Positions 607 through 57,526 of a stretch of DNA of 64,000 nucleotides are shown piece by piece; positions within the stretch are counted from its first letter, which is position 1; each line of letters begins with the position of its first letter. The notes under the pieces are model-generated. The model was given only the letters and a program-made list of their open reading frames with translations, made no database searches and had not been told where the DNA came from. A program made the translations under genes and the position numbers. This DNA comes from an uncultured Bacilli bacterium (lineage in GTDB: Bacteria; Bacillota_I; Bacilli_A; RF39; UBA660): positions 14,919 to 78,918 of the forward strand of contig CANROB010000003.1 of NCBI GenBank assembly GCA_947632115.1, in the 5' to 3' direction.

Positions 607-607
607 G

Positions 608-4157: not shown

Positions 4158-4217
4158 TGCTTCCTCCTATTCCCGTAAATATCATACCACATAAATCGAC
4201 ATTCGTAAAGAAATTGA

Positions 4218-4246
4218 TTGTCTAATTATACAAATTTTGATATAAT
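4218..4246 (+). promoter_or_regulatory. candidate sigma-A promoter (TTGTCT, 17-nt spacer, TGaTATAAT)
   Basis: -35-like TTGTCT at 4218-4223, a 17-nt spacer, and an extended -10 TGATATAAT ending at 4246. It lies ~30 nt upstream of the AGGT RBS and ATG at 4278. Confidence 0.5.
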
Positions 4247-4277
4247 GTAAAAGATTGAGTAATAGAAGTGAGGTATT

Positions 4278-5639
4278 ATGAAAGAAACAAAGAAAAAGAA
4301 AAAATGGCGATTCAAAAAACAATCCCTTTTTAACTTACTTAGTGTCCTATTTGTATTTGGGACAGGGTTTTATTTTCTTGGTAGATTAATCTATTATAAA
4401 ATAGAAAGTGAAAAACCATATATCCCCCCTCTAGATCTAGCAACCAGGGTCATTGAACAAAATGACACCTACGATTTGAGAAAATCATTTATGGAAACAA
4501 ACGGTATTTATCGCTTTGTTGGAGATGTGAATAATAACTATGTAAAATATAAAGGATATCTATGGAGAATCGTTCGTATCAATGAAGATAAAAGTATCAC
4601 CCTAGTAACCGAAGATACCGTTACCTCTTTAGCGTATGGAGGGTCTTTAAACAATTATATTCTTTCTTGGCTCAATCAAGAAGAAGAAAAAAATACAGGA
4701 ATTTTTGAAGCCACTCTAGAGGCAGAGGAAAAAGAACTTCTTGCCACTAAACAATGCTTAGATAGTTTTCCTGATATTGAATCTGCTGGTTGTTTTGAGT
4801 CAAATAGTGACTATAAAATTGGTCTTCTTAGTATCTATGATTACCTAGAAGCCAATGCGAATCAAAGTTATTTAAATAATGGTACCAATTTCTGGACTAC
4901 TAATAGTTATGATGCTAATCATGCTTGGTATGTTTCCGAAGAAGGATTAGTTAGTTATGATGAATATACCAGTAAATATGGTATTCGTCCAACCATTACG
5001 ATTTCTGGTGATACCGCTATTATGAGTGGAAATGGCACAGCAGATGACCCATATCTTTTAAATAATAGAGAAATCAAAACCATTGAGGATATTTATCCAG
5101 GAAGTTACCTTCTTTATAATGATACTTTATGGAAAGTAGTATCTAAGGAAAATCATAAAGTAAAAGTAGTGAGTGAAGAATGTATCAAAGATGGGGAAGA
5201 TTGTCTTCTTATGCGTTTTTCTCTTTACGATAATGATTTTTCTTTAAATCGAGAAGAACTTCTTTATTACCTCAACAATACCTATTACCATTCTTTAAAA
5301 AACAGGGATTATCTTGTAAGCGGAAACTTCTACGCAGGAAATTACTCTTTAAAAGATAATAATTATCGTTCTGCTTTAGAAAAAAGAGTCACTCTTCCTG
5401 TTGGTTTCTTATCTATCGCCGATCCTTTTGCTTTTGAAGTTGAAAATACCTTTCTATTCACAACTAGTATAAGTAATGAGATGAGTATTTATTCCGTTAA
5501 TGAAAATCACGTTTTATTTGAAAATACTGTAACAGAGGAATTAGCTATTCGCCCTGCTATTCATCTAAAAGGAAGTATTCCTGTTGCAAGTGGGACGGGA
5601 GATTATTTAAATCCTTATATTTTAGGAGGAAATGAATGA
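4278..5639 (+). CDS. membrane-anchored extracellular protein, function unknown
   Basis: 453-aa ORF with a Lys-rich N-terminus followed by one TM helix. The motif GIRPTITI / AIRPAIHL recurs. A 4-nt ATGA overlap links it to the next gene. Confidence 0.75.
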   Translation: MKETKKKKKWRFKKQSLFNLLSVLFVFGTGFYFLGRLIYYKIESEKPYIPPLDLATRVIEQNDTYDLRKSFMETNGIYRFVGDVNNNYVKYKGYLWRIVRINEDKSITLVTEDTVTSLAYGGSLNNYILSWLNQEEEKNTGIFEATLEAEEKELLATKQCLDSFPDIESAGCFESNSDYKIGLLSIYDYLEANANQSYLNNGTNFWTTNSYDANHAWYVSEEGLVSYDEYTSKYGIRPTITISGDTAIMSGNGTADDPYLLNNREIKTIEDIYPGSYLLYNDTLWKVVSKENHKVKVVSEECIKDGEDCLLMRFSLYDNDFSLNREELLYYLNNTYYHSLKNRDYLVSGNFYAGNYSLKDNNYRSALEKRVTLPVGFLSIADPFAFEVENTFLFTTSISNEMSIYSVNENHVLFENTVTEELAIRPAIHLKGSIPVASGTGDYLNPYILGGNE

Positions 5640-6745
5640 CCAAGAAAAAGAAAATAGAAAAAATAGACAAAAGGATAGAAAAGGAAGAAAAAAAAGAGTC
5701 TAGGAAAATAGAAAAGAAAGAGGAAACATCAGAGGCAAAAAAGAAAAAAAAGAAACGAAAAATTTCTATCTTTACTTGGATTTGTGGATTCTTTGATATT
5801 TTAGTCCTTCTTTTCTTTCTCGTTGTTTACGGACCAAATCAACAATTTAAGAACTGGTTTATCACAACGGCTTTAGCAACAGGACATCATAAATATTTTG
5901 CCAATGTTCTTTATAGTGAAAAGGATATCGAAAGAGCTCTTAAAAATAATATGGTCATTGAAGCATCCGATAGTACAGATGTATCAGAAATCACCTTTGA
6001 AAATCAAGAAAAAGATACTTATGAATCTATCTATGAAGAGCAAATCCTAAAACGAGATGAAGGAAATGATTTATATAAGGTTATAGAAATTGAAGAAAAA
6101 GACTATAAAGGATTTTTAGTAGTTATCTATGATGCAAAAAGAATCTCCTTAGTGAGTGCTCGTTATGGAGGACAAAAGTTAGTCGATATTGCAAAATATA
6201 ATAATGCCAAAGTAGCCATTAATGCGAGTGGATTTTCTTATGGAACAGGTAGAGAAATCCCTACTGGTACTGTTATTCAAAATGGAAAAGTAGCATCCGT
6301 TGGAGGAAGAAATACCCATGGTGGTGGTCTTATTGGATTTACTAAGGAAGGTGTTTTAATGCTTACTTCAGATAGTGCAACCGAAGCTATTAAAGAAGGC
6401 ATGTGGAATGCGATGACCTTTGGACCATTCTTAATCGTAAATGGTAAATCTGCCGAAGTAAAAGGAAATGGTGGATGGGGAGTCGCGAATAGAACAGCCA
6501 TTGCTCAAAGAAAAGATGGAATTGTCTTGTTCCTCATTATTGATGGAAGAGGCGCTAACGGTAGTGATGGTATTTCTATTAAAGATATGATTACCCTTTT
6601 AGAAAAATATAAAGCCTATAATGCTGCTAACCTAGATGGTGGTGGTTCTTCTACCCTTGTTATTGAAAATAAATTAATTAATAATCCTCGTGGTTATGGC
6701 TATGTAGGAGAAAGAAAAATTCCTAATGGATGGATTGTAAAATAG
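5636..6745 (+). CDS. phosphodiester glycosidase family protein (DUF2233-like), membrane anchored
   Basis: 369-aa ORF with a Lys/Glu-rich cytoplasmic tail, one TM helix, and a C-terminal domain carrying the NLDGGGSS motif characteristic of this family. Confidence 0.65.
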   Translation: MTKKKKIEKIDKRIEKEEKKESRKIEKKEETSEAKKKKKKRKISIFTWICGFFDILVLLFFLVVYGPNQQFKNWFITTALATGHHKYFANVLYSEKDIERALKNNMVIEASDSTDVSEITFENQEKDTYESIYEEQILKRDEGNDLYKVIEIEEKDYKGFLVVIYDAKRISLVSARYGGQKLVDIAKYNNAKVAINASGFSYGTGREIPTGTVIQNGKVASVGGRNTHGGGLIGFTKEGVLMLTSDSATEAIKEGMWNAMTFGPFLIVNGKSAEVKGNGGWGVANRTAIAQRKDGIVLFLIIDGRGANGSDGISIKDMITLLEKYKAYNAANLDGGGSSTLVIENKLINNPRGYGYVGERKIPNGWIVK

Positions 6746-6765
6746 AACTTCGGTTCTATTTTTTT
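6742..6765 (+). terminator. rho-independent terminator
   Basis: ATAGAAC-TTCG-GTTCTAT hairpin followed by a T-run, directly after the stop at 6745. Confidence 0.8.
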
Positions 6766-6796
6766 ATAAAAAAAATCACCAATTGGTGATTTTTAG
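6766..6796 (-). terminator. rho-independent terminator after xseB
   Basis: On the minus strand: AAAATCACC-AATT-GGTGATTTT followed by a T-run, just downstream of the xseB stop at 6803. Confidence 0.8.
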
Positions 6797-6802
6797 ATGT
6801 TT

Positions 6803-7033
6803 TTATTCTTCCTCGTAATGAAACTCTTCTAAAGAGCCATCTTCTTTCACAATTTTATTTACTTGTTCTTCAATACTCTTTAATTTTTCATCACATTCGC
6901 CTACTAATTTCATGGCTCTTGTATATTTTTCTATGGAAGAATCTAGATCAATTTCTCCATTTTCTAATTCCTGAATAATTTCTTCTAGTTCTTTCATTTT
7001 ATCTTCAAATTTTTCTTTCGTCTCTTTTGCCAT
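6803..7033 (-). CDS. xseB: exodeoxyribonuclease VII small subunit
   Basis: 76-aa acidic helical protein (LEEIIQELENGEIDLDSSIEKY) immediately downstream of, and overlapping, xseA. Confidence 0.9.
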   Translation of the reverse strand: MAKETKEKFEDKMKELEEIIQELENGEIDLDSSIEKYTRAMKLVGECDEKLKSIEEQVNKIVKEDGSLEEFHYEEE

Positions 7034-8378
7034 ATTCCCTCTCCTCTATTTTTTCTATTTTGGTATCGACAACGCCATCTACAAACCGAACTTGAAGTGG
7101 CATTCCCTCTTTTAAAGATGTTATATCCCGAACAATTTTTCCCTCTTGCATAGACATACTATATCCTCGTTTTAATACGCCTAGAGGATTTACTAGTTCT
7201 AATTTTTGTAAATCGTGTAACAAGAGAACTTTTTGCTTTGATAATAAGTTTATCATTCCTTTGGTTAACGTTTTTTTATCTTGGCTTAACTCTTCTATTC
7301 TACCTTCATAAAGCAATTTCGGATTTTTTAATAAATAATGTTTTTTCATTTGTTCTAAGATGGTTCTTTTTCCCACTAAATAGGAAGATATCCCTTCTTC
7401 TAATCTCGTATGCAATAAATCTAAAGCTTGTCTTTTATGATCAAATAAAATCATAGGACTTTTAATCACAAAGGAACTTTTAAAAGATTCTAATACCAAT
7501 TTTTGATATTTTACTTTCTTAATAATCGCTTCTTCTAAACGAATCTCTAACTGATGAAGATATTTTTCTAGGTCAACGACATTAGGAACAGCCATTTCAG
7601 CAGCTCCAGTTGGTGTAGGGGCTCTTCTATCAGCAACAAAGTCTGCTATCGTAAAATCTACTTCATGGCCAACAGCACTAATAATAGGAATTTCGGAATC
7701 ATAAATAGCTCTTGCGACTATCTCTTCATTGAATGCCCATAAATCCTCAATAGATCCTCCACCACGTCCAACAATTAAAACATCGATATCATAACTGGCA
7801 GCTCTTTTAATGTTTCGAACAATATCTGGAGCAGCATATTCTCCTTGAACAAGACTAGGAAAAAGAATCGTTTCACAAAGAGGATACCGCCTTTTTATGG
7901 TAGATAAAATATCTCTAATAGCGGCCCCCGTTGGTGCGGTTACAATTCCTATTTTCGTAGGATACTTAGGGATTGGTTTTTTATGTTCTGCTTGAAATAA
8001 TCCTTCTTTAGCTAAATCCTGCTTTAATTTTTCAAAAGCGACATAGAGATTACCAATTCCATCTTCTACCATTTCCTCTACATAAATTTGATAACTACCA
8101 CTTTGCTCATAGACACTAATGCGTCCTGTGACTAATACTTTCATTCCATCAGCTGGTTGAAAAGTTAACTTTGAGGCATTGCGACTAAACATAATGGCAT
8201 TAATCTTACTATTTTCATCTTTTAAAGAAAAGTAGAAGTGTCCACTCGTATGTCCCTTAAAATTAGAGATTTCCCCTTTTAAAAAAACCATACGAAGATG
8301 CTCATTCCGATCAAACTGATCTTTTAAATAGCGGTTAATTGCCGTTACTGTTAGATACTTAGTGGGAGTTTGATTCAT
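7005..8378 (-). CDS. xseA: exodeoxyribonuclease VII large subunit
   Basis: 457-aa ORF with an OB-fold N-terminus ([17 protein letters not shown]) and a catalytic core ([29 protein letters not shown]). Confidence 0.95.
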
Positions 8379-8784
8379 GATCCACCTTATGATGATATAC
8401 TTTATCTAAAACACCATTAATCATTTTTCGAACATCATCATCACTATAATCTTTCGCTAGTTCAATTGCCTCATTAATGGCTACCACTTCAGGAGTATCT
8501 GTATAAAGTAATTCATAGATACCTAACCTTAAAATAGCTTGATCTGTAAATCCTAAACGGTCAATAGTCCACTTATTTAAATATTGATTGGCCGTTTTAT
8601 CAATATCTTCTTGATTTGTAATAACCCCATAAACAGAATTTTTCACAAATTCGTTTTCGATTTCTAGAACACTTGCCATAACAGAATCAACATCATATTC
8701 AATATGATTACTCTGATAAACTTCCATTTGATAGAGAATTGTCATAATCTTTTTTCGTAATTCACTTCTCGTCATTTGTTCCAT
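8359..8784 (-). CDS. nusB: transcription antitermination factor NusB
   Basis: NusB-like sequence (RELALQ-type helix, [28 protein letters not shown]). Start moved to the ATG at 8784, which follows an AGGTGA RBS. The track start is a GTG inside that RBS. Confidence 0.9.
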
Positions 8785-8860
8785 CCCAATCACCTAGTAT
8801 TATTTTAACATAAGAACCTAAAAATGAGAACAGAAAACAAAAAAATAAGAGGATTTCCTC

Positions 8861-9256
8861 TTATTTTAAGATAGAATTTAAATTGTTTCGTAAAGACTCT
8901 AATTCTATATATTTTTTAGAACGAATAGAGGTATATTTGCGCAATGTAAATAAAAGTTTTAGTATCGTCATAACAAACGCTAAAAGGATTAAGATTGTCC
9001 CTAAAAGGATTTGCTCACTAGCTACCAAATAAATACCTAAACCTAATAACAAAAGAGAAATGACAACCGTAATTAAAATGGCAACACTATTTTGATATTC
9101 ACTTTCCATGGTGGATAATTTCGTCTTTAGATATTCAATTTGATCCTCTTTTGGCATTTTTAAATGATCCATCGCATCTACTACATTATTATAAATAATT
9201 TCATTTTTATTTTTTTCTTCTCCACTAATTGCTATATTCAAAATTTCTCTCTCCAT
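8861..9256 (-). CDS. small membrane protein, unknown function
   Basis: ORF with two TM helices. Start set at the ATG at 9256, preceded by a GGGAGG RBS. Confidence 0.6.
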   Translation of the reverse strand: MEREILNIAISGEEKNKNEIIYNNVVDAMDHLKMPKEDQIEYLKTKLSTMESEYQNSVAILITVVISLLLLGLGIYLVASEQILLGTILILLAFVMTILKLLFTLRKYTSIRSKKYIELESLRNNLNSILK

Positions 9257-9309
9257 ATTTACCTCCCTGAATATGTTATTATTGTAACACAAATCTCAGG
9301 ACATGCAAA

Positions 9310-9708
9310 TTATTTTTCTTCTATTTTTAAATATTTTTCCCCTTTACCGCAAGCTAGTTTTACTAAAATAGCGATATTTAGATAAACGATAAGAAGGAAA
9401 AATGCTATCCAACCAACAACAGGAACGATAAAACAAAGAATCCATATAAAAGGCGATAAATAGATTTCTTTGAAAGGAACCTCTAATTTAAAGGCTGCTT
9501 TCGTAGTCATTTCAATAGCAAAGACAAAAGCCATCACCACAACAGGAAAGAAGAAGAAAATCGTTCCTATAATCCAATACTTTGCTTGCATATACCAAGC
9601 ATCTTCTTCATAATTTCCTAAAAGATAAGATAAAAATAACTTGTCAAAACTTCCCATCACAAAAAATAGAACAATCCAGATCCACCAATTCTTTTTCTTT
9701 AATAACAT
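9310..9708 (-). CDS. integral membrane protein, unknown function
   Basis: 132-aa ORF with about four hydrophobic helices. Confidence 0.6.
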   Translation of the reverse strand: MLLKKKNWWIWIVLFFVMGSFDKLFLSYLLGNYEEDAWYMQAKYWIIGTIFFFFPVVVMAFVFAIEMTTKAAFKLEVPFKEIYLSPFIWILCFIVPVVGWIAFFLLIVYLNIAILVKLACGKGEKYLKIEEK

Positions 9709-9736
9709 ATTATCACCACATACATTATATCATACT

Positions 9737-10078
9737 TTACGAAGTAACGAAACTAGAGATTGTTCCAAAAACTTTCATTACCCCCATTTTTACTACTTTA
9801 CTAATTCCTGTGGATACTTTAACACCTACTTTGGTAAAGCCATTTTGATAATCCTTTGTTTGATTTTTTAAATAGTCTTTCACATCTACTTCTTTTCCAT
9901 CTTTCACATCTTGCTCAAACTGTTTAATCTGCTCTTCTGTCATCGTCATTTTTTGATAATTTTGGTATTCATAATATCCTGTTACTCCCGAAAAATAAAG
10001 GGTCAAGAAAATCACAAAGAAAAATAAAAACAGCCACCGGAATACTTTATACCTCTTTTCCATATAAATATTCTCCAA
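9737..10078 (-). CDS. small membrane-anchored protein, unknown function (start uncertain)
   Basis: 113-aa ORF with one N-terminal TM helix. It overlaps the 3' end of spoIIP and may be co-transcribed with it. Confidence 0.55.
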   Translation of the reverse strand: MENIYMEKRYKVFRWLFLFFFVIFLTLYFSGVTGYYEYQNYQKMTMTEEQIKQFEQDVKDGKEVDVKDYLKNQTKDYQNGFTKVGVKVSTGISKVVKMGVMKVFGTISSFVTS

Positions 10079-10910
10079 TCACAGAGGCTAAAATAGATAT
10101 GGTATTTTGAACCTCTTCATAAGTGTTTTGATTTCCCCCTAATTCGATTAAAATCATATTGGGCCCTAAATCCTGATTATAGATACCATTTACATTCGAC
10201 CCTGTTTGAAGAAGAATGCCACGACTCAGTTTTGGAAATTGTTCCTCTAAAAGAGCATTTATCTTTTCTGCCACAGCATAATTGGCTTCGTAGGTAACGT
10301 TTTTCCCGCCAATTACAAATAAGACTTTCGCATAACTTTTGCCATCTCTTTCTATAGTAGAAGATTTTTTACTAACCGCATCTCGATGTAGGTCAATCAC
10401 AAGATCATAAGAAGATTTTTGTAAGGCATCTAAAATAAAGATACGACTTACCTTATAGCTTTCATAATAGGCATAGTTATTCATCCGAACAAACTCCTGA
10501 ATGTTTTGTTCCTCTAAAGTAACATCTACTTGTTTTTCTTTTAAGGATTTTTGAAATGCTAAAGAGGCCTCCGTGATAGATTCTTTTCCCGCATATGTCT
10601 CTTCATTATGGGTACTATAAAGATATACTTTCGGATATTTTGGATTGGTAGATGCAAAAATTACCTTTTTTATCGGTTTTGCGTGTCCCCGATAACTAAG
10701 AAGAACGGTTGGTTGATTAATCGTATTTTCTTTTACTTTTTCATAAAAAGACTTTCCTAAATCCTTCACACTAAAATAAGACGTTGGTGAGGTATCTACT
10801 AGGGTATAAATACAAAACTTAATCAGTAAATACGTAAATAAGAGCAAGAAAAAGTATTCAATAAGCCATTTCTTTTTTAATCTTTTCTTCGATTCAAATC
10901 GTTTTGTCAT
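10047..10910 (-). CDS. spoIIP: stage II sporulation protein P (SpoIIP-family amidase)
   Basis: N-terminal TM helix, then motifs YLYSTHNEETY, DLHRD, VLFVIGGKN, FPKLSRGI, IYNQDL and ILIELGGNQNT, which match the SpoIIP family pattern. Confidence 0.85.
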   Translation of the reverse strand: MTKRFESKKRLKKKWLIEYFFLLLFTYLLIKFCIYTLVDTSPTSYFSVKDLGKSFYEKVKENTINQPTVLLSYRGHAKPIKKVIFASTNPKYPKVYLYSTHNEETYAGKESITEASLAFQKSLKEKQVDVTLEEQNIQEFVRMNNYAYYESYKVSRIFILDALQKSSYDLVIDLHRDAVSKKSSTIERDGKSYAKVLFVIGGKNVTYEANYAVAEKINALLEEQFPKLSRGILLQTGSNVNGIYNQDLGPNMILIELGGNQNTYEEVQNTISILASVIGEYLYGKEV

Positions 10911-10976
10911 AATCCCTCCTCACTATTTATATACTCTATCCTTCCTAAAAAATATGTCACAAAAAAAGAAGAATTA

Positions 10977-11666
10977 CTATTCTTCCTCTATTTGTTCAAT
11001 CAGTTCTTTTATATTTTTAACAGTTCCTTTAGAGACTTTCAATAAATCTTCCGAGCAACCTGGGAAAGTATATCCTTGATAAGCTTCAATCATCGCATAA
11101 TCATTAAAACCATCGCCAATCGTATAAATATCTTTTTTATCATAGTGGTAAGTCTCCGCTAAATAATCAATAGCATTCTTTTTTGAGACAGACTTATCAA
11201 AAAGATTAATCCAATTGGTACTCATATAACCATTGACATCAGGATATTTACGCAAAATAGTATCTAGTGTTTGCAGAGCTTCTTCACGGTTATATGGCCT
11301 TGCAATGATTCCATTTGCACATTTACTCGTATCCGTAACATATCCATGAGAAGTATCAATAAAAGTCTCAATCATATTTTCATCATCTTTTAGGGCATAA
11401 TAAATAGGTCTTACTAGTTCCTGTTTGATATCTTTCCGATATAAGACATTAAAATATTTATCAAAGATGACAGCTCCATCATTACAAATGTAATACTCAC
11501 ATTCGACATCAATCATACTGAGATCTTCCGCTAAATAATTCATAGCCCGTCCTGTTGCAATAATAAATTTATTGCCATGACGAACAAAATCATGAATTGC
11601 TTTTACATTTTCTTCTAAATCTTTTCCATATAAGGTACCATCAAAATCGCTAACAATTACTTTCAT
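10977..11666 (-). CDS. HAD-superfamily (Cof-type, IIB) hydrolase
   Basis: Begins VSDFDGTL (motif I), with TGR (motif II) and GDGFNDYAM (motif IV). Confidence 0.85.
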   Translation of the reverse strand: MKVIVSDFDGTLYGKDLEENVKAIHDFVRHGNKFIIATGRAMNYLAEDLSMIDVECEYYICNDGAVIFDKYFNVLYRKDIKQELVRPIYYALKDDENMIETFIDTSHGYVTDTSKCANGIIARPYNREEALQTLDTILRKYPDVNGYMSTNWINLFDKSVSKKNAIDYLAETYHYDKKDIYTIGDGFNDYAMIEAYQGYTFPGCSEDLLKVSKGTVKNIKELIEQIEEE

Positions 11667-11675
11667 AGATCACCT

Positions 11676-12218
11676 CTAACTAATTAATGCTTGAGAAATC
11701 ATATCTCCTAAATTATGAAATGTATCCACCAAAAGATACCATTTGGCTTTCCAAAAAGAGCCAAAACTCTTTTCGTTATGAATAATAATCAAAAACTCTT
11801 CTCCAATCGTTTCCACAAACGTTTTTGCATGATATCTTTCAAAGCGCTTCGCTAAAACCTTGGAATCAATATATTTTGAACTTCCATAAAGATAGAGTTT
11901 TTTTCGATTGATATAAACACTGTCATAAAGAAAATATTTAAAATAATCATAGATTTCATTGAGGTTACAAACGATGTAATCAACTGATTTCTTTTTAAAT
12001 TTTTTCCGTAATTTTTTCATATTAATTTTCTGGCTGCCATTCAATTTTGCTTTTTTATTTCGAGAGAATAATCCTTTATGGGGATTTCGGTCAATGGAAT
12101 AGAGGCTAATTTTAGAATTTTTCATCAATTGACGAATGATTTTTTGATCCGTCACTCCAATACAAAGAACATTTCCTGTAAAACTCTTTAAATCCTTATT
12201 TAATCTTTCCATAGACAT
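11676..12218 (-). CDS. hypothetical protein
   Basis: 180-aa basic ORF in an operon-like position. I recognise no motif. Confidence 0.6.
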   Translation of the reverse strand: MSMERLNKDLKSFTGNVLCIGVTDQKIIRQLMKNSKISLYSIDRNPHKGLFSRNKKAKLNGSQKINMKKLRKKFKKKSVDYIVCNLNEIYDYFKYFLYDSVYINRKKLYLYGSSKYIDSKVLAKRFERYHAKTFVETIGEEFLIIIHNEKSFGSFWKAKWYLLVDTFHNLGDMISQALIS

Positions 12219-44595: not shown

Positions 44596-45846
44596 CTATT
44601 GTTCGTTAAAAAAATATCCAAATAATTTTCCTAACATGCTATCACGTGTTGCTTCAACCGGTACTTTTTGAACGTCTGCCAATCGAGAGGCATCCTCATT
44701 TCCTACCATTGAATAATTCTTGCCTTGTAATTTTAACTTACTAATAAAGTAAACAATATTTCCTACGCAAGATGAAAATTTGTTATCTCGGATACCTAAT
44801 AATTTGATATTTCCAATACTGACATTCTTTCCTAAAACAAAAGAAGCCGTGTACTCAATATCCACCATATTACTAGTACCACCTGTTATTATCATATAAT
44901 CAATTTTCTTCGTTGTCAATATATTCATCTCTTTTTTTGCTAGATTTAAAATCTCTTCTAGCCTAGAAGAAACAATTTCTGAAACCTCAAATTGATTCAC
45001 TTTTAAAGCACTATCTAGAGAAGTAGAAATCTCATACATATCCCCTGTAGAAGCATTTCTTTTATTCGCTAAAGCAAAGTGATGTTTTAATTCTCTAGAG
45101 GTAGTTAAATCGGTTTTATACATATAAGCGATATCATTATCAATATTTTTACCACCCATAGGAACTACAGAACTTTTTACAATCACACCTCGATTATAAA
45201 GAGAAATACTTGTTGTTTCACTACCAATATTTAAAATTATTCCTACTTTTTCTTCCATCTCTTTATTTTTAAAGGCATATAAATCACCAATATTATTTAA
45301 AGTGATATCGACAACTTCAATACCAAGAGACTCTAAAAGGCTGATAACCGAATAGACATTCTTCTCAGGAGTACTTACCAAAACTCCTCTTACACTTAAT
45401 TTCTCACCTTTTTGATTTGTTGGATTCTTAAGAGGAAGAGAATCATCTACCTTAAAATCCACTGGTAACATAGTTACAAATTCTCGTTTTTCTAGCTTTT
45501 TAGAAGCAACCGCTGCTTGTATAACAGAAGTAATTTCTAAAGAACTAACAATTCCTGTTTCTTCTGGAATATCTACTGTTGCTTTTACAATCGAATATTC
45601 TGAAAAATAAGAAGGAACTGAAACGATTACGCGGCGTATCGGAATACCAATTTTAGATTCGATATCAAAAAGAGCTCCTCTAACAGATTTTCCTGCCTCT
45701 TCGACATCCGTAATCAGTCCTTTTTTTATTCCTTTTGAAGGAAAAGATGATGCTGCAAGCAAATTGAGTTTATTTTGATAAAGCTCACAAACTACCACTT
45801 TTATACTATCAGAACCAATATCCATGCTAGTATAAATATGCTTCAT
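44596..45846 (-). CDS. ftsA: cell division protein FtsA
   Basis: Actin-fold ATPase (DIGSDSIKVVV, NIGSETTSISL, ITGGTS) immediately upstream of ftsZ. Confidence 0.95.
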   Translation of the reverse strand: MKHIYTSMDIGSDSIKVVVCELYQNKLNLLAASSFPSKGIKKGLITDVEEAGKSVRGALFDIESKIGIPIRRVIVSVPSYFSEYSIVKATVDIPEETGIVSSLEITSVIQAAVASKKLEKREFVTMLPVDFKVDDSLPLKNPTNQKGEKLSVRGVLVSTPEKNVYSVISLLESLGIEVVDITLNNIGDLYAFKNKEMEEKVGIILNIGSETTSISLYNRGVIVKSSVVPMGGKNIDNDIAYMYKTDLTTSRELKHHFALANKRNASTGDMYEISTSLDSALKVNQFEVSEIVSSRLEEILNLAKKEMNILTTKKIDYMIITGGTSNMVDIEYTASFVLGKNVSIGNIKLLGIRDNKFSSCVGNIVYFISKLKLQGKNYSMVGNEDASRLADVQKVPVEATRDSMLGKLFGYFFNEQ

Positions 45847-46001: not shown

Positions 46002-48101
46002 TTAAACAGCATTTTCTGAAACATTTGGTTCCTCCTGATTAAAAATAATATCTCTTGAAACAATCATTTTATAATCAGCAGAAGATATATCCACAATCAT
46101 TTTTTCTCCCCACGTACTAACAACCAAATCGTCTTTGCTGGTAAAACCAGTAATCGTCATAGCATGACTTTCGCCATTTTTCATGTAGCAATCTCCTCGT
46201 TCCCCAGTAACTGGATCAACAGTATATAAATCATATCCGAAAGAATTCAGCTCGATAGTTTTCCCACTCTTCAAGTTTTCTTTTATTTTATCAATATCTA
46301 TTGGAGGCTCTGGTGGTTTTTCCGCCATTGTTTTTGAATCATAGTAATAATCATATAACGTTTCAGCATCAAATTGATAATCCTCAGCTGGTATTTTTTC
46401 TTCTAAAAATTTTCTTAGAGAACTGGTTCTCGCAAGAGAATAGGATACAGAGAAAAAGTTAAAACTTTCTAAAGGAGAAATGGTGTCGCGTTTTTTTTCT
46501 AAATAATTCTCCACTGTTAAATCTGCAAATTTTTCCTCTTCTGTTTCCTTGTCTCTTTCCTCATCTGTTTTTTTCAAAAAATCATAAATTTCAGTAATAT
46601 CATGTCCAGACCAATAATAAGAAAAGAGTTCCATTGTCAAATAGGTATAATTATATTTTTTTACCCCGTTCGAATTAACGGTATACATATCGTATCCAAA
46701 ATATTTTCTGAATAAGTCTTCTTTTCCTTCAAACTGATCAAAAATAAAGTTAGACATCGCAACATATCCGCAACCACAGTTAGTCAATTGCTGAAAAAAT
46801 AAGCAATAGTCTAATTCATCCGCATCGGGATATTTCTCTTTTAAAAAATTACTAACCCATTCATCTTCTAGAAGTTCATCGGTATGAAAATCAAAATAGT
46901 CTTGATTCCCGCCATAAGTTCCTGTGTAAATATTGAATTTAGAAAAAATTCCTCCCTTTTGCTCTTCGCTCCAATCTCCTACACATCTAATCAAATCTCC
47001 ATAACCCTCATAAGTTAAAGAACGACCATCTTTAAAGTGAACAATCATAAATTTATCATAAACAGTCACACGAGAAATCGTAGAAAGATTCATACTATCA
47101 GCGGTATAAAGAGATAAAAATTTATCCGTTTGTTCATCTTTAAAGGAAACATCATAACTATTTCCATGAAATCGAATATTAGAGATAGCATCTTTTGGAA
47201 CTTCAAAATCTCCAACAACCACAAAATTATCCCCCTGAATATAAAGAGGAGCATCAAAACCAGGAAGATACAAACTCAGCGACTCTCTTTCTCCATCTGA
47301 GTTTAACCACTCCGTACTCAAATCACAAAGGGCATCCAAATTTGACAGTTGAATTCCCTCTTTTTCCCAGATAGTTTCTGTTATTTTTTGACTAAAATAA
47401 TTTGTAACTGTACCATCGAAATAACTAGATCTAAGTATTACAGGTTGAAGAACCTCATCCCAAGAAAAGAAAACACTTCTTATATAATCCTCAATTTTTT
47501 GTAAAATGGGATTTTCTTGAGTAGAAACATGACAAACAGGATTTTTTCGTTTTACAATTCGATTCGTTTTATCATAAACAAGATATCCATTACCAGTCAA
47601 ATGAACGGTTACCGTATTTTTTTCTACCCGAACGTTTTCAACTAACTTACTATCAATATATAATCCATCGGGTAAAAAAACTTGTCCTAATTGATTAGGG
47701 TATAAAGAAATGGTATATCCCTTTTTATCGGTAGAAATATCAGCAACTTCTTCAGCAAGTATTTGCATTCCGTTATCTAAAACAAAACAATTTCCGTCAT
47801 CTGATAGTTTAGGAAGTCTTTCATTAAAATCTGAATTTTCATGGTCAAAAATTCCCGCCTTAAAATCCTCAAGCGTAATACCAAATTTCTCTAAAATTTT
47901 ATTAACTCTTTCTTCTGCATTAGTAACATTTTCTTTCACAAAAGAAAGTGTTTCTTCTATAGGATTATTCCCTGCTTTTTCATGGTCGGTTTTTTCACTG
48001 GAGGTAGCATTTGTCTGTTGATAAGAACCAATACTACTATTTTTTAATCCGTTATAGTCACTATTGAATGTTACTTTCGCCCTTTCAAATCCTTCTGCCA
48101 T
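46002..48101 (-). CDS. array large protein, copy 4 in transcription order (699 aa); putative papain-fold Cys/His C-terminal domain
   Basis: Intact ORF with a GAGGTGA RBS, 10 nt after the small gene's stop. Conserved MAEGFE.. N-terminus. GCGY (Cys444, nt 46770-46772) and SHAMTITG (His646, nt 46164-46166) followed by VSTWG. Confidence 0.85.
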   Translation of the reverse strand: MAEGFERAKVTFNSDYNGLKNSSIGSYQQTNATSSEKTDHEKAGNNPIEETLSFVKENVTNAEERVNKILEKFGITLEDFKAGIFDHENSDFNERLPKLSDDGNCFVLDNGMQILAEEVADISTDKKGYTISLYPNQLGQVFLPDGLYIDSKLVENVRVEKNTVTVHLTGNGYLVYDKTNRIVKRKNPVCHVSTQENPILQKIEDYIRSVFFSWDEVLQPVILRSSYFDGTVTNYFSQKITETIWEKEGIQLSNLDALCDLSTEWLNSDGERESLSLYLPGFDAPLYIQGDNFVVVGDFEVPKDAISNIRFHGNSYDVSFKDEQTDKFLSLYTADSMNLSTISRVTVYDKFMIVHFKDGRSLTYEGYGDLIRCVGDWSEEQKGGIFSKFNIYTGTYGGNQDYFDFHTDELLEDEWVSNFLKEKYPDADELDYCLFFQQLTNCGCGYVAMSNFIFDQFEGKEDLFRKYFGYDMYTVNSNGVKKYNYTYLTMELFSYYWSGHDITEIYDFLKKTDEERDKETEEEKFADLTVENYLEKKRDTISPLESFNFFSVSYSLARTSSLRKFLEEKIPAEDYQFDAETLYDYYYDSKTMAEKPPEPPIDIDKIKENLKSGKTIELNSFGYDLYTVDPVTGERGDCYMKNGESHAMTITGFTSKDDLVVSTWGEKMIVDISSADYKMIVSRDIIFNQEEPNVSENAV

Positions 48102-48111
48102 ATTTCACCTC

Positions 48112-48765
48112 TTATAAATAATCTACATATGTTTTTTCTAATATCGTGACTAAAACAGGAAGTTTTCCTATCAATTTTCTTTCGAAAGTTCTAGAAAATT
48201 CTTGAATAAAGAATTTTTGAACTTTCAAGTTTTCAATAAATTCTTTTCCTCTAACAATATTTTCATTCTTTCCACAGTGAAAAGCAATCACTAGGTTTTT
48301 ACTATCGACAATATTTTTTGGTATCATTGCCCCATAACAGGTAGTTGTGGCTTCTTCATAAACTCCTCTTCTATAGTTATCACGAATTACTTCTGGGTAA
48401 GTTTTTTTCACAACTTCAAGAACAGCCTCATCTACCTTTTCTTTTTCCTTTAAAAGGTCAATATCTTCTGTTTCTAGTTTTTCGATAAATAAAAAATTAC
48501 GAATATAAAAATACTTAGAAGGAGATACTTTTTGATAAGGATTTTTTCTTTCTTCTGGTACTACACCAAAATCTAGATGGATTTCTTCTACCACTTTATC
48601 GCATTGTAATAGGTCAAAATAATGAGCTAAAACTTGATATAAACCTTCTCGATAAATACGCTCTATCTTCTCATAAAGGGTATAATCCTCTTTCCTAATA
48701 AGTCCTTTTTCTTCGGTCATTTGTTGATTGATGAAATCTTTTTGTCTTTTTATTTCTTCTATCAT
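48112..48765 (-). CDS. array small partner protein, copy 3 (217 aa), unknown function
   Basis: Intact ORF with an AGGAGA RBS. No TM helix or signal peptide. 11 of 217 residues differ from the copy at 53145..53798 (hand count). Confidence 0.85.
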   Translation of the reverse strand: MIEEIKRQKDFINQQMTEEKGLIRKEDYTLYEKIERIYREGLYQVLAHYFDLLQCDKVVEEIHLDFGVVPEERKNPYQKVSPSKYFYIRNFLFIEKLETEDIDLLKEKEKVDEAVLEVVKKTYPEVIRDNYRRGVYEEATTTCYGAMIPKNIVDSKNLVIAFHCGKNENIVRGKEFIENLKVQKFFIQEFSRTFERKLIGKLPVLVTILEKTYVDYL

Positions 48766-48794: not shown

Positions 48795-48823
48795 ATTATA
48801 TCAATCCATAACAAAGTCGGTAA
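48795..48823 (-). promoter_or_regulatory. sigma-A-type promoter of array unit (TTACCG, 17-nt spacer, TGaTATAAT)
   Basis: -10 TATAAT at 48800-48795 with TG at -15/-14, and -35 at 48823-48818. The same architecture sits upstream of all three small genes. Confidence 0.6.
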
Positions 48824-48862: not shown

Positions 48863-50977
48863 CTATTGAATAGCCTCATCTAAAACGTTTGGTTCCTCTG
48901 TATTTAAAGTAATATCTCTTGAAACAATGGATTTATAAGTCGCGGAAGATATATCCGCAATCCATTTTTGACCCCACGTACTAACAATTAAGTCTCCTTC
49001 TTTGGTAATATCAGTAATCGTCATAACGTGACTTTCGCCTTTTTCCATGTAGCAATCTCCACGTTCCCTAGTAACTGGATCAACAGTATATAAGTCATAT
49101 TCAAAAGCACTCAACTCGACAGTTTTCCCACTTTTCAACTCTTCTCTTATTTTATCAATATCTATTGGAGGTTCTGGTGGTTTTTCCGCCATTGTGTCTT
49201 TATCGTAGTAATAATCATATAATTCTTCTACATCAAATTGATAATCCTCAGAGGGTATTTTTTCTTTTAAAAAGTCACTTAAGCAATTTGTACGTGTAGA
49301 TACGTCTGATCCATTAAAAGGCACAAATCCTACTAAAGAAGTATAGATATCGGTCCTTTTTTCAAAATGATTTCCCACTGTTAAATCTGCAAATTTTTCC
49401 TCTTCTTTTTCTTTATCTCTTTCCTCGTCCGTTTTTTTCAAAAAATCATAAATTTCAGTAATATCATATCCAGACCAATAGTAGGAGAAAAGTTCCGTTG
49501 TCAAATACTTATAGTTATATGTTTTCACTCCACTAGAATCAATGGTATACATATCGTACCCAAAATATTTTTTAAATAAATCTTCTTTGCCTTCAAACTG
49601 GTCAAAAATACAATTGGCTAATGAAATATATCCACAACCACGATCAGTCAATCGCTCAAAAAATAAATAATAGTCTAACTCATCCGCATCGGGATATTTC
49701 TCTTTTAAAAAATTCGTAATCCATTCATCTTCTAAAAGTTCGTTGGTATGGGAAGAAAAGTAGCCTTGATCTCCGCCATAATATTTTACATAACTATTGA
49801 ACTCAGAAAAAATTCCTCCTTTTTGCTCTTTTTTCCAATTTCCCTCACAGTTCATAAAGTCACCATAAAGTTCATAAGTCAAAGACCTGCCATCCTTAAA
49901 ATGAACAACCATAGAATCATTATTCATCGTAATATGAGAAAGGGAGGAAGTATCAAATTCTGTCATGGAAGGATTAGAAAGAGTTAACGTCTCATGCTTC
50001 CAGTTATCTTTAAAGAATACATCATAACTATTTTCATGAAGACAAATCTCAGAAACAGCATCTTCTGAAATCTCAAAAGCCCCATAAGTCCAAAGTTTAT
50101 TATCGCGAATGAGAATAGGATTAGTTAAATTACGGGCATATAAAAATAAACTTCCCTCATCACCCTTCCACTCTATGGTTTTTCCACTATATCCATAAAA
50201 TTGATCTAAATTTGATAATTGGATTCCCTTTTCAGCCCATAGAGCTTCTGTTGTTTTTTGGCTAAAATAATTCCATGTTGTTCCCTCAACATCATCCTTA
50301 AATGTTTCCGTTATTATCGGATGAAGAACCTCATCCCAAGAAAAGAAAACACTTCTTATATAATCATCAATTTTTTGCAAAATAGGATTTTCTTGGGTAG
50401 AAACATGATAAACAGGATTTTTTCGTTTTACAATTCGATTCGTTTTATCATAAACAAGATATCCATCATCAATCAAATGAACGGTGGTTGTATCTTTCTC
50501 TACCCGAATATCTTCAACTAACTTACTATCAATATATAATCCATCGGGTAAAAAAACTTGTCCTAATTGATTAGGGTATAAAGAGATGGTATATCCCTTT
50601 TTATCAGTAGAAATATCAGCTACTTCTTCAGCAAGTATTTGCATTCCATTATCTAAAGTGAAACAATTTCCATCATCTGATAGTTTAGGGATTCTTTCAT
50701 TAAAATCTAATTTGTCATGACTAAGAATTCCTTCCTTAAGTTCATTTAGTGTAATGCCTAATTTTTCTATAATCCGATTGATATTTTCTTTGGCATTAGT
50801 AACATTTTCTTTTACAAAAGAAAGCGTTTCTTCTATAGGATTATTCCCTGTTTTTTCATAGTCAGTTTTTTCACTGGAGGTAGCATTTGTCTGTTGATAA
50901 GAGCCAATACTACTATTTTTTAATCCACTATAGTCACTATTTAATGTTACTTTCGTTTTTTCAAATCCTTCTGCCAT
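48863..50977 (-). CDS. array large protein, copy 3 (704 aa from the homologous ATG); no intact small gene upstream
   Basis: Start placed at the ATG at 50977 (MAEGFEK), by homology with the other copies. The track uses an upstream GTG. It carries the GCGY and SHVMTITD...VSTWG motifs. Confidence 0.85.
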   Translation of the reverse strand: MAEGFEKTKVTLNSDYSGLKNSSIGSYQQTNATSSEKTDYEKTGNNPIEETLSFVKENVTNAKENINRIIEKLGITLNELKEGILSHDKLDFNERIPKLSDDGNCFTLDNGMQILAEEVADISTDKKGYTISLYPNQLGQVFLPDGLYIDSKLVEDIRVEKDTTTVHLIDDGYLVYDKTNRIVKRKNPVYHVSTQENPILQKIDDYIRSVFFSWDEVLHPIITETFKDDVEGTTWNYFSQKTTEALWAEKGIQLSNLDQFYGYSGKTIEWKGDEGSLFLYARNLTNPILIRDNKLWTYGAFEISEDAVSEICLHENSYDVFFKDNWKHETLTLSNPSMTEFDTSSLSHITMNNDSMVVHFKDGRSLTYELYGDFMNCEGNWKKEQKGGIFSEFNSYVKYYGGDQGYFSSHTNELLEDEWITNFLKEKYPDADELDYYLFFERLTDRGCGYISLANCIFDQFEGKEDLFKKYFGYDMYTIDSSGVKTYNYKYLTTELFSYYWSGYDITEIYDFLKKTDEERDKEKEEEKFADLTVGNHFEKRTDIYTSLVGFVPFNGSDVSTRTNCLSDFLKEKIPSEDYQFDVEELYDYYYDKDTMAEKPPEPPIDIDKIREELKSGKTVELSAFEYDLYTVDPVTRERGDCYMEKGESHVMTITDITKEGDLIVSTWGQKWIADISSATYKSIVSRDITLNTEEPNVLDEAIQ

Positions 50978-51020
50978 AAACACCTCTTATAAATATCTAT
51001 AAAAATATCTTTTTTCTTTG
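50978..51020 (-). pseudogene. probable relic of the 3' end of a deleted small partner gene
   Basis: CACCTCTTATAAATA (plus strand) is identical to the stop/RBS junction of the intact small-large pairs. It is followed by degenerate similarity (TCTA.A...TTTTTTCT) to the last codons of the small genes. Confidence 0.5.
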
Positions 51021-51046
51021 ATAAGAAAATTATCTTACCTAATCCA

Positions 51047-53134: not shown

Positions 53135-53144
53135 ATTTCACCTC

Positions 53145-53798
53145 TTATAAATAATCTACATATGTTTTTTCTAATACCGTGACTAAAACAGGTAGTTTTC
53201 CTACTAATTTTCTTTCGAAAGTTCTAGAAAATTCTTGAATAAAGAATTTTTGAGCTTTTAAGTTTTCCATAAATTCTTTTCCCCTAACAATATTCTCGTT
53301 TTTTCCACAGTGAAAAGCAATTACTAAATTTTTACTATCGATAATATTTTTAGGTATCATCGCCCCATAACAGGTGGTTGTGGCATCTTCATAAACACCT
53401 CTTCTATAGTTATCACGAATCACTTCAGGGTAAGTTTTTTTAACAACTTCAAGAACAGCCTCATCCACTTCTTCTTTTTCTTTTAAAAGGTCAATATCTT
53501 CTTTTTCTAGTTTTTCGATAAATAAAAAATTACGAATATAAAAATATTTAGAAGGAGATACTTTTTGATAAGGGTTTTTTCTTTCTTCTGGTACTACACC
53601 AAAATCTAGATGAATCTCTTCTACCACTTTATCGCATTGTAATAAATCAAAATAATGAGCTAAAACTTGATATAAACCTTCTCGATAAATACGTTCTATC
53701 TTCTCATAAAGAGTATAATCACCTTTCCTAATAAGCCCTTTTTCTTCAGCCATTTTTTGATTGATGAAATCTTTTTGTCTTTTAATTTCTTCTATCAT
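53145..53798 (-). CDS. array small partner protein, copy 2 (217 aa)
   Basis: Intact ORF whose stop lies 10 nt upstream of the large gene's ATG (TAA-GAGGTGAAAT-ATG). Confidence 0.85.
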   Translation of the reverse strand: MIEEIKRQKDFINQKMAEEKGLIRKGDYTLYEKIERIYREGLYQVLAHYFDLLQCDKVVEEIHLDFGVVPEERKNPYQKVSPSKYFYIRNFLFIEKLEKEDIDLLKEKEEVDEAVLEVVKKTYPEVIRDNYRRGVYEDATTTCYGAMIPKNIIDSKNLVIAFHCGKNENIVRGKEFMENLKAQKFFIQEFSRTFERKLVGKLPVLVTVLEKTYVDYL

Positions 53799-53827: not shown

Positions 53828-53856
53828 ATTATACCAATCCATCATAAAATCGGCAA
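53828..53856 (-). promoter_or_regulatory. sigma-A-type promoter of array unit (TTGCCG, 17-nt spacer, TGgTATAAT)
   Basis: -10 at 53833-53828, TG at -15/-14, and -35 at 53856-53851. Confidence 0.6.
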
Positions 53857-56007: not shown

Positions 56008-56017
56008 ATTTCACCTC

Positions 56018-56671
56018 TTATAAATAATCTACATAGGTTTTTTCTAATACTGTGACTAAAACAGGTAGTTTTCCTACTAATTTTCTTTCGAAGGTTCTAG
56101 AAAATTCTTGAATAAAGAATTTTTGAGCTTTTAAGTTTTCAATAAATTCTTTTCCCCGAACAATATTCTCATTTTTTCCACAATGAAAAACAATTACTAA
56201 ATTTCTACTATCAATAATATTTTTAGGTATCATCGCCCCATAACAGGTGGTTGAAGTTTCTTCATAAACGCCTCTTCTATAGTTATCGCGAATGATTTCT
56301 GGGTAGGTCTTTTTCACAACTTCAAGAACAGAATCATCTACCTCTTCTTTTTCTTTTAAAAGGTCAATATCTTCTTTTTCTAGTTTTTCGATAAATAAAA
56401 AATTACGAATATAAAAATACTTAGAAGGAGATACTTTTTGATAAGGGTTTTGTCTTTCTTCTGGTACTACACCAAAATCTAGATGGATTTGTTCTACCAC
56501 TTTATCGCATTGTAATAAATCAAAATAGTGGGATAAAACTTGATATAAACCCTTTCGATAAAGGCACTCTACCTTTTCATAAAGAGTATAATCCTCTTTC
56601 CTAATAAGTCCTTTTTCTTCTGCTAATTGTTGATTAATGAAATCCTTTTGTCTTTTTATTTCTTCTATCAT
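56018..56671 (-). CDS. array small partner protein, copy 1 (217 aa)
   Basis: Intact ORF. About 19 of 217 residues differ from the copy at 53145..53798 (hand count). Confidence 0.85.
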   Translation of the reverse strand: MIEEIKRQKDFINQQLAEEKGLIRKEDYTLYEKVECLYRKGLYQVLSHYFDLLQCDKVVEQIHLDFGVVPEERQNPYQKVSPSKYFYIRNFLFIEKLEKEDIDLLKEKEEVDDSVLEVVKKTYPEIIRDNYRRGVYEETSTTCYGAMIPKNIIDSRNLVIVFHCGKNENIVRGKEFIENLKAQKFFIQEFSRTFERKLVGKLPVLVTVLEKTYVDYL

Positions 56672-56701: not shown

Positions 56702-56730
56702 ATTATACCAATCTGTGATAAAATCGGCAA
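56702..56730 (-). promoter_or_regulatory. sigma-A-type promoter of the first array unit (TTGCCG, 17-nt spacer, TGgTATAAT)
   Basis: -10 at 56707-56702 and -35 at 56730-56725, just downstream of the ftsQ stop (56747). Confidence 0.6.
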
Positions 56731-56746: not shown

Positions 56747-57526
56747 TTACTTTTTCTTTTCTTTCTCATAAGGATCTAGGTATTCCCCACCTTCTAAGTG
56801 TAGAACGCCTTTTTTTTCATTCGAACCTTCTAAATATTCAATATAATTATAAATTCTTTGAAACTTGGATTTTCCATTTTCTGTTTCTAAAGTTGCATAA
56901 ACATAATTGCCATCATTCATAGAAATCAAAAACAACTGCGTATCCTCTTCATCTGGAGTATATCGTATTTCAGACATTCTACTTAAGATATCAAGAGGTA
57001 CTCCTCCCATTTCTTGAATAAAGTTTTCTAAGACATCCGAAGGGACTTGATTTAAAAGCGTTGGAACAGCAAAAGTATCCTCTACTTCTTCTCCACTTTC
57101 TAAAACTGTTTTTCCTGTTGTTTCATAATAGAAAAGAGGTCTATTTTCATCTACCGTAATCACAACTTTCGTAAACCAATTTTTCTTCTCTACTTTCGCA
57201 GATTGGATATAGATATTTTTCTCAATATTTTTACGAATCAAATAACTTGGAGTCTTTAAAGTACTAGGATAATCTCGAATAAGAGCCATATCAATAATCT
57301 CTTGATCTCGAAAAAACTCATTATCCTTAACAATAATAGATTGGATAGGTACTTGAAAAAGTAACCACCCCACTAAGGCAATGATAAGAAGAAAAATGAA
57401 AAAGAAAAGAATTTTCACATACTGAATCTTACGTTTTTTCTTTTTCTTTTCTCTTTCTTTTTCTTTTTGAAGAGCAATCCTTGATTTATCGGAATGCTTT
57501 AATTCTTGCCTTTTTTCTTTTTTCAT
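56747..57526 (-). CDS. ftsQ: cell division protein FtsQ/DivIB
   Basis: Basic N-terminal tail, one TM helix, and a POTRA-like domain (IQSIIVKDNEFFRDQEI). It sits downstream of murB in the dcw cluster. Confidence 0.8.
   Translation of the reverse strand: MKKEKRQELKHSDKSRIALQKEKEREKKKKKRKIQYVKILFFFIFLLIIALVGWLLFQVPIQSIIVKDNEFFRDQEIIDMALIRDYPSTLKTPSYLIRKNIEKNIYIQSAKVEKKNWFTKVVITVDENRPLFYYETTGKTVLESGEEVEDTFAVPTLLNQVPSDVLENFIQEMGGVPLDILSRMSEIRYTPDEEDTQLFLISMNDGNYVYATLETENGKSKFQRIYNYIEYLEGSNEKKGVLHLEGGEYLDPYEKEKKK

Follow-up and report, generated by a model that had tools for sequence, protein, structure and literature searches.

The window analysed in this study, a 64,000-nt stretch of the genome of an uncultured member of the Bacilli, contains an array in which three small genes, each specifying a protein of 217 amino acid (aa) residues, are situated directly ahead of genes that encode large proteins of approximately 700 aa. 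The small proteins are almost invariant while their large neighbours differ extensively, which raises the question as to which part of the large protein the small protein belongs with, and in what capacity. Based on sequence comparison, structure prediction and an analysis of selection, we consider it probable, at roughly two chances in three (0.68), that the 217-aa protein serves in the cytoplasm as the cognate immunity protein, i.e. an inhibitor, of the C-terminal papain-like Cys/His domain of approximately 320 aa that is carried by its neighbour.

Organisation of the array

The genes of the array all reside on the minus strand and are transcribed in the order S3-L3, S2-L2, L1b and S1-L1 (Table 1). 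The array is bordered by two genes of the dcw cluster, with ftsQ/divIB (56747–57526) on one side and ftsA (44596–45846) on the other. It is absent from all of the same-genus relatives that were compared (n = 11), and in nine of these eleven the gap from the end of ftsQ to ftsA amounts to approximately 90–190 nt; the 10.7-kb array is a lineage-specific insertion into the dcw cluster which was amplified afterwards.

Table 1. Coordinates of the array features within the window, in the order of transcription.
Feature	Position	Strand	Remarks
Promoter-like site before S3	56702..56730	minus	TTGCCG, 17 nt, TG-n-TATAAT; 10/12 matches, extended -10
S3	56018..56671	minus	Small protein, 217 aa; proposed immunity protein/inhibitor
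S3/L3 spacer	56008..56017	minus	GAGGTGAAAT, 10 nt; Shine-Dalgarno overlapping TAA
L3	53869..56007	minus	Large protein, 712 aa: disordered N-terminus, beta-rich middle, C-terminal Cys/His domain
Promoter-like site before S2	53828..53856	minus	Architecture as at S3; promoter scan
S2	53145..53798	minus	Small protein, 217 aa
S2/L2 spacer	53135..53144	minus	10 nt
L2	51047..53134	minus	Large protein, 695 aa; divergent copy
Remnant ahead of L1b	50978..51046	minus	3' end of lost small gene, ...ATTTATAAGAGGTG...; compared with the three intact junctions
L1b	48863..50977	minus	Large protein, 704 aa (from ATG at 50977); no small gene of its own
Weaker promoter-like site before S1	48795..48823	minus	TTACCG variant; upstream alignment, missed by promoter scan
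S1	48112..48765	minus	Small protein, 217 aa; AF2 model alpha/beta
S1/L1 spacer	48102..48111	minus	10 nt
L1	46002..48101	minus	Large protein, 699 aa
L1 C-terminal Cys/His (papain-like) domain	46002..46961	minus	Residues 381-699; proposed target of the small protein

In the approximately 45 nt ahead of L1b a resemblance to the 3' end of a small gene persists, with ATTTATAAGAGGTG among the retained sequence; a fourth small gene has therefore been deleted from this position. Such a loss of one small gene in four fits the notion that the copies of the small protein may be interchangeable. Tandem repetition was also observed elsewhere: on a contig of a rabbit-gut metagenome-assembled genome (MAG) a second small gene begins after the large gene (L008:2731–2910), while an ENA contig displays the gene order large, small, large (L001:5201–7537).

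The spacer of 10 nt between the TAA of the small gene and the ATG of the large gene, which the original prediction had described as identical, was found to be so in each of the three pairs, the arrangement TAA-GAGGTGAAAT-ATG being exact at all three junctions. Similarly, TAAGAGGTGAAATATG was encountered exactly three times, and only at the three small/large junctions, a frequency that was reached in none of 100 shuffles. The spacer consists essentially of AAGAGGTG, a Shine-Dalgarno site that overlaps the stop codon, followed by 4 nt, and it is contained within a block of 33 nt (-28 to +5 relative to the ATG of the large gene) that is identical across all three copies; the final 150 nt of the small genes exhibit a three-way identity of 93%. 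Because the Shine-Dalgarno site falls within a block that is identical in recent paralogues, the identity of the spacer is not remarkable, amounting to no more than recent paralogy gives. In 16 other loci the small/large spacer ranges from -4 to 27 nt and TAGGAGG often overlaps the stop codon, and these spacer lengths would suggest that tight coupling of the small and large gene is a trait of the family as a whole. A conserved promoter-like site with an extended -10 precedes each of the three small genes; across the region such sites are no commoner than in shuffled sequence, the calls resting on their position and on their conservation between units.

Association of the small protein with the Cys/His domain

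Close homologues of the small and large proteins are very rare, though profiles reach further. In approximately 20 loci, the small-family gene invariably adjoins a gene whose product carries the same C-terminal Cys/His domain (hereafter C-domain), irrespective of the N-terminus of that product. HMM searches of the 1.45-Mb genome identified exactly six ORFs of the small family and exactly seven with the C-domain, and each of the six small genes adjoins a C-domain gene. The three pairs located outside the array (on contigs C29, C23 and C1, with partners of 1,139, 352 and 1,024 aa, respectively) have partners with unrelated N-termini and are arranged in the order large then small. The same adjacency was observed on two ENA contigs and on two contigs of the rabbit-gut Bacilli MAG, and in seven of nine loci of further relatives the C-domain gene is directly followed by the small gene. 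The small-first order was found only in the window, in the rabbit MAG and in locus L002, the large gene being first elsewhere. Altogether, the small family accompanies the C-domain beneath at least five unrelated N-termini, in partners that range in length from 352 to 1,528 aa.

Contig C29 provides a direct comparison, as it encodes two adjacent 1,000-aa proteins which have a common N-terminus of 600 aa and which end in an HExxH domain and in the Cys/His domain, respectively. The small-family gene follows only the protein that ends in the Cys/His domain and not its HExxH twin.

It had previously been proposed that the small protein recognises a conserved part of the large protein, being either the N-terminal 20 aa or the Cys/His domain, rather than the variable middle. 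The co-occurrence described above speaks for the Cys/His domain, and the dismissal of the variable middle is substantiated by the manner in which the small family follows the C-domain across unrelated architectures. For the N-terminal 20 aa as the recognised part, on the other hand, no support was obtained, given the number of unrelated N-termini that are found beside the small family and the predicted disorder of residues 1–46 of L1, which include these 20 aa. The favoured reading of the small protein is not that of an N-terminal adaptor.

Across 19 pairs, the identity between small proteins tracks that between the corresponding C-domains (Pearson 0.885; Mantel p = 2e-4), a correlation that is confounded by the shared ancestry of neighbouring genes. 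Since adjacent genes share their history, this co-variation is regarded as supportive rather than decisive. The original prediction had further considered the small protein to be a poor fit with a classical, co-diversifying immunity protein, an opinion that has to be revised: the small protein does co-diversify with the C-domain over these 19 pairs, while its gene is mostly located directly downstream of that of the putative toxin, in some cases within type VIIb secretion system (T7SSb) loci.

Predicted structures and family searches

The AF2 model of the small protein is a compact alpha/beta structure (pLDDT 88, pTM 0.86), and inspection of its sequence revealed neither a signal peptide nor a transmembrane segment, a combination which fits a cytoplasmic binder. 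A Foldseek search with this model against the PDB (best E = 0.15, TM < 0.2) and BFVD yielded no match. When the small-family profile was compared to PDB sequences, a weak match was noted to the TIR domains of TLR10 and TLR1 (E = 0.004–0.06); the fold search lends no support to a TIR reading, and the match is probably due to chance. The possibility that the small protein is a propeptide mimic of the large one was also rejected, as the two share no similarity (blastp E > 4).

The model of L1 has a pLDDT of 78 overall, with most of the C-domain exceeding 90. Beyond the disordered N-terminus, residues ~100–375 (window positions 46962–47800) are predicted to form repeated beta-rich modules. In the corresponding variable half of a rabbit homologue (L007:821–1630) a sub-threshold match to PepSY (E = 0.0067) hints at a propeptide- or inhibitor-like module.

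According to the predicted topology of the C-domain, a helix begins at C444 and a strand at H646, and S662-x-W664-G665, which resembles the N-S-W-G of papain, is found on the strand that comes next. Across 50 sequences no variation was seen at C444, H646, W664 and G665, and almost none at Q400 and S662; the third catalytic position is occupied by Ser, or by Asp in one paralogue. Judged by this motif and by the predicted topology, the C-domain appears to be papain-like. At 50% identity the family to which it belongs amounts to 1,413 representative clusters (E ≤ 1e-3); it is not represented by a Pfam model, and mostly occupies the C-terminus of proteins of 300–2,500 aa. The Cys/His domain was also encountered internally, in three to five copies, in the giant proteins P0041 (5,914 aa), P0043 (7,686 aa) and P0045 (5,597 aa), where it could represent a processing peptidase instead of a terminal toxin.

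Searches of the small and large proteins against Pfam, NCBIfam and PADLOC returned nothing above threshold, the only Pfam matches being sub-threshold ones to L31, FtsH_ext and Peptidase_C39_2, with no Tox-PL or Imm model among them. Sequence and profile searches of the PDB with both families produced nothing meaningful, while alignment of the C-domain with 14 classical C39 domains from relatives by means of hhalign gave a probability of 0.7%. Foldseek analysis of the full-length L1 model retrieved spurious beta-propeller matches only (TM ~0.1), which were driven by the beta-rich half.

Secretion context and alternative roles of the small protein

Two distant small homologues, P0032 and P0024, are encoded directly after proteins of 1,528 and 1,411 aa, respectively, the last 300 aa of which constitute the same Cys/His domain (E ~1e-55). 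The corresponding loci, on two metagenome contigs, are of type VIIb and carry WXG100 genes, DUF4176 and genes for FHA-FtsK EssC proteins. In loci L012–L015 DUF4176, members of which are chaperones of T7SSb toxins (PMC12478183), is encoded apart from the small gene, and small helical proteins are also present in the T7SSb loci.

A type VII-like locus is present in the 1.45-Mb genome itself (C29:3866–18026; L009 covers positions 1–12000 of this contig). Beside the putative toxins of contig C29 lies a gene for an EssC-like protein of 1,515 aa that is 36–38% identical to the EssC proteins of the P0032 and P0024 loci, and next to it is encoded a protein of 211 aa with a sub-threshold, full-length match to WXG100 (E = 0.048). 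Just upstream of the toxins, an 88-aa protein is similar to unnamed proteins of 83–85 aa from the T7SSb loci L013 and L014 and, by our reading, may be ubiquitin-like. The first of the C29 toxins, that with the HExxH C-terminus, is separated from the next toxin by no gene, so that it has no obvious immunity gene. Directly after the pair on contig C1 comes a gene for a DUF4176 protein (E = 6e-28). The Pfam models for WXG100 and YukC/EssB found no match anywhere in the genome, secretion genes were not found near the array, and the large proteins of the window possess no LXG/WXG or other recognised export domain and no signal peptide.

It is at this point that the main rival to the immunity reading has to be considered, namely that the units act inside the cell as toxin-antitoxin or abortive-infection modules. 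On this view the large protein would never be exported, and the small protein would serve as a type II-like antitoxin which is produced first from a shared transcript and neutralises the Cys/His domain. The role of a neutraliser is common to both readings. An antitoxin-first order with tight coupling and a promoter of its own is typical of such modules and not of most polymorphic toxin loci; this order is, however, restricted to the window, the rabbit MAG and L002, and in T7SSb loci both families are found as the C-terminal module and the downstream gene of proteins of 1,000–1,500 aa. While the lack of an export domain, a signal peptide and secretion genes at the array agrees with an intracellular role, as does the common occurrence in the family of short C-domain proteins (300–500 aa) without long N-termini, the beta-rich N-terminal half of ~380 aa would have no obvious role in such a module, PADLOC yielded no match and Pfam detected no DNA-binding domain in the small protein. 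Overall, we deem the toxin-antitoxin reading unlikely.

A second alternative holds that the small protein is not an inhibitor and acts instead as a chaperone, adaptor or activator which the large protein needs in order to fold, remain stable, be exported or mature, and to this we attach a low likelihood. Dedicated partner proteins are indeed needed by T7SSb toxins (PMC12478183, PMC9600955), and a gene that comes first, is tightly coupled and remains conserved while its partner varies would suit such a function. Nevertheless, the small protein follows the C-terminal toxin domain, whereas known targeting factors and the Ltc/DUF4176 chaperones bind N-terminal or middle regions (PMC12478183). Furthermore, the T7SSb loci carry DUF4176 and small helical proteins besides the small-family gene, whose position right after the toxin in most loci is typical of immunity genes, and no Pfam match of the small protein to DUF4176 or to the small helical Lap families was obtained.

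Selection and gene conversion

Pairwise comparison of the small proteins revealed differences at 11, 19 and 22 of 217 residues; the near-invariance that had been reported for them is accordingly upheld, although the range of 11 to 19 given at the time was too narrow. The genes differ at 43, 52 and 60 of 654 nt, chiefly at third codon positions. The large proteins are 43–71% identical to each other, in line with the strong divergence ascribed to them in the original prediction. Values of dN and dS were calculated by the Nei-Gojobori method with bootstrap. For the small genes, dN was 0.022–0.044 and dS 0.30–0.37, with a dN/dS of 0.07–0.13 (bootstrap upper bound 0.23), as compared to a dN of 0.18–0.49, a dS of 0.41–1.07 and a dN/dS of 0.36–0.51 for the large genes, with no overlap between the confidence intervals obtained for the dN/dS of the two groups. 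In units 1 and 3 the dS values of the small (0.37) and large genes (0.41) are similar while their dN values differ four-fold, and in these units both genes are of the same age, with the small gene being under approximately four-fold stronger constraint.

Unit 2 is discordant in this respect, as the dS of S2 to S1 and S3 is 0.30 and that of L2 to the other large genes is ~1.0. In the small genes a max-chi2 scan located a mosaic breakpoint after nt 418 (permutation p = 0.002), with S3 being the outlier 5' of the breakpoint and S1 the outlier 3' of it. The suggestion that gene conversion contributes to the uniformity of the small genes is substantiated by this breakpoint and by the discordance of unit 2. 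The large genes are mosaic as well: L1 and L3 have a dS of 0 across residues 26–84, and L1 and L1b are 96% identical across residues 110–159. L1 and L2 reach an identity of 78–90% only near the catalytic Cys (residues ~400–520; dN/dS 0.06–0.27), the sole segment of the large genes that is as constrained as the small gene. Since a sliding-window scan of the large genes revealed no 50-codon window with a dN/dS convincingly above 1, positive selection is not supported, and the 'diversification' of the large genes is attributable to relaxed constraint and mosaicism.

The same asymmetry is apparent in the independent rabbit-gut MAG, in which the small proteins are 87% and the large proteins 70% identical. 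Purifying selection is the main cause of the uniformity of the small genes, to which gene conversion or recombination between units adds. The notion that this uniformity results solely from very recent duplication or from gene conversion, the small protein being functionally unconstrained, may draw on the small-gene mosaic, the discordance of unit 2 and the 33-nt block at the junctions, yet it is hardly credible and is largely refuted by the dN/dS analysis, as a dS of 0.30–0.37 is substantial against a dN of 0.02–0.04 (dN/dS ~0.1), the small and large genes of units 1 and 3 agree in dS and not in dN, and the asymmetry recurs in another lineage.

A model for the function of the pair

Returning to the immunity reading, each unit would constitute an operon with its own promoter, composed of the small gene, the 10-nt spacer with its Shine-Dalgarno site and the large gene. 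Owing to this order, the neutraliser would be translated before, and together with, the putative protease. The small protein would bind the conserved protease domain, its most plausible target being the Cys-bearing helical lobe (residues ~400–520), as this is the only part of the large protein under comparably strong constraint, and by neutralising this domain it would keep the producer safe. All four large paralogues retain the domain, for which reason one immunity specificity could serve all of them, and because the warhead that is recognised does not diversify within the array, the small protein need not do so either. The near-invariance of the small genes would be maintained by purifying selection, aided now and then by gene conversion from one unit to another, and the array could persist although one small gene in four had been lost. 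Of the roles considered in the original prediction, that of a pre-emptive cytoplasmic inhibitor is thus retained, with the conserved Cys/His domain as its partner, inhibition being what we infer from the evidence above.

A more speculative extension of the immunity reading, which we consider doubtful, is that the array represents an 'inverted' polymorphic toxin system, in which the immunity specificity and the protease warhead are held constant while the tandem copies come to differ through shuffling and diversification of their non-catalytic N-terminal and middle beta-modules, for instance for different receptors or substrates. The immunity gene, the junction and the promoter might in that case function as a conserved homology arm for recombination, and export might proceed independently of both LXG and a signal peptide; both of these elements form part of the same extension.

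The analysis provides a working annotation for two unnamed families, one being a papain-like C-terminal domain and the other its partner of ~200 aa, whose fold is predicted with confidence and finds no counterpart in the PDB. The two families probably represent a toxin-immunity module of gut Bacilli with small genomes that is partly linked to type VII secretion. In the literature searched, no papain-like protease toxin linked to a T7SS was found to have been characterised experimentally. With four natural variants of the putative toxin and three near-identical immunity proteins, the array would be convenient for studying protease recognition and the reach of cross-protection.

Comparison with known systems

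There is established precedent for papain-like protease toxins that are accompanied by an adjacent immunity protein, examples being Cpe1/Cpi1 (bioRxiv 10.1101/2024.12.30.630690) and Tox-PL1/Imm35 (PMC3482391). The kind of weapon system is known, while both protein families are unnamed and the arrangement of their genes is unusual. Cpe1/Cpi1 may be regarded as the nearest analogue that has been studied experimentally, by way of analogy and not of homology. As in the Cpe1/Cpi1-type PLCP pairs of T6SS and CDI systems, a papain-like domain (here predicted) is located at the C-terminus of a delivery protein (here putative), with a small cytoplasmic immunity protein (here proposed) encoded adjacent to it. 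Like immunity proteins of the Cpi1 type, the small protein lacks an enzymatic domain as well as a structural homologue, and co-varies with its putative toxin. In contrast to Cpe1/Cpi1, neither protein of the window is similar to any PDB chain by sequence or profile, and the C-domain has no detectable relation to C39/ComA-like domains. Moreover, the third catalytic position is Asp or Asn in Cpe1/Cpi1 as opposed to Ser in the window family (Asp in one paralogue), the immunity gene comes first in the window, and Cpe1/Cpi1 belongs to Gram-negative T6SS/CDI systems whereas the window families are those of Bacillota with a T7SSb context.

The LXG toxins of T7SSb (TelA-C/TipA-C and EsaD/EsaG; PMC10765036, PMC9600955) are resembled in three respects, these being the location of distant members beside EssC, WXG100 and DUF4176, the succession of a C-terminal toxin module and a small gene in those members, and the occurrence in the genome of two toxins with a common N-terminus and different C-termini. 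The large proteins of the window differ in that they are devoid of LXG or a recognised export domain. In addition, their N-terminal and middle parts vary while the toxin domain and its immunity protein are constant, which is the reverse of the usual polymorphism, the immunity gene precedes that of the toxin, and the array is embedded in the dcw cluster.

With the staphostatin-staphopain and Spi-SpeB pairs the units would have in common that a papain-like protease is pre-empted within its own cell by a cytoplasmic protein encoded on the same transcript, as is proposed here. Staphostatins adopt a small beta-barrel fold, and Spi is similar to the propeptide of SpeB. From these inhibitors the small protein of the window differs in its 217-aa alpha/beta model, which has no fold match in the PDB, and in its lack of resemblance to any part of the large protein (blastp E > 4); its gene lies upstream of that of the protease, unlike those of staphostatin and Spi, which are encoded downstream.

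Finally, Tox-PL1/Imm35 (Zhang et al. 2012, PMC3482391) likewise combines a papain-like toxin domain with an immunity family that is specific to one toxin type. The Tox-PL1 signature is NC-H-DxQ, as against GGNQ…GCGY…GGGHAM…VSSWG in the C-domain of the window. Imm35-type immunity has been read as a peptidase inhibitor (PMC3482391), and the small protein of the window would appear to correspond to what Zhang et al. (2012) understand by an immunity protein that is specific to one toxin domain.
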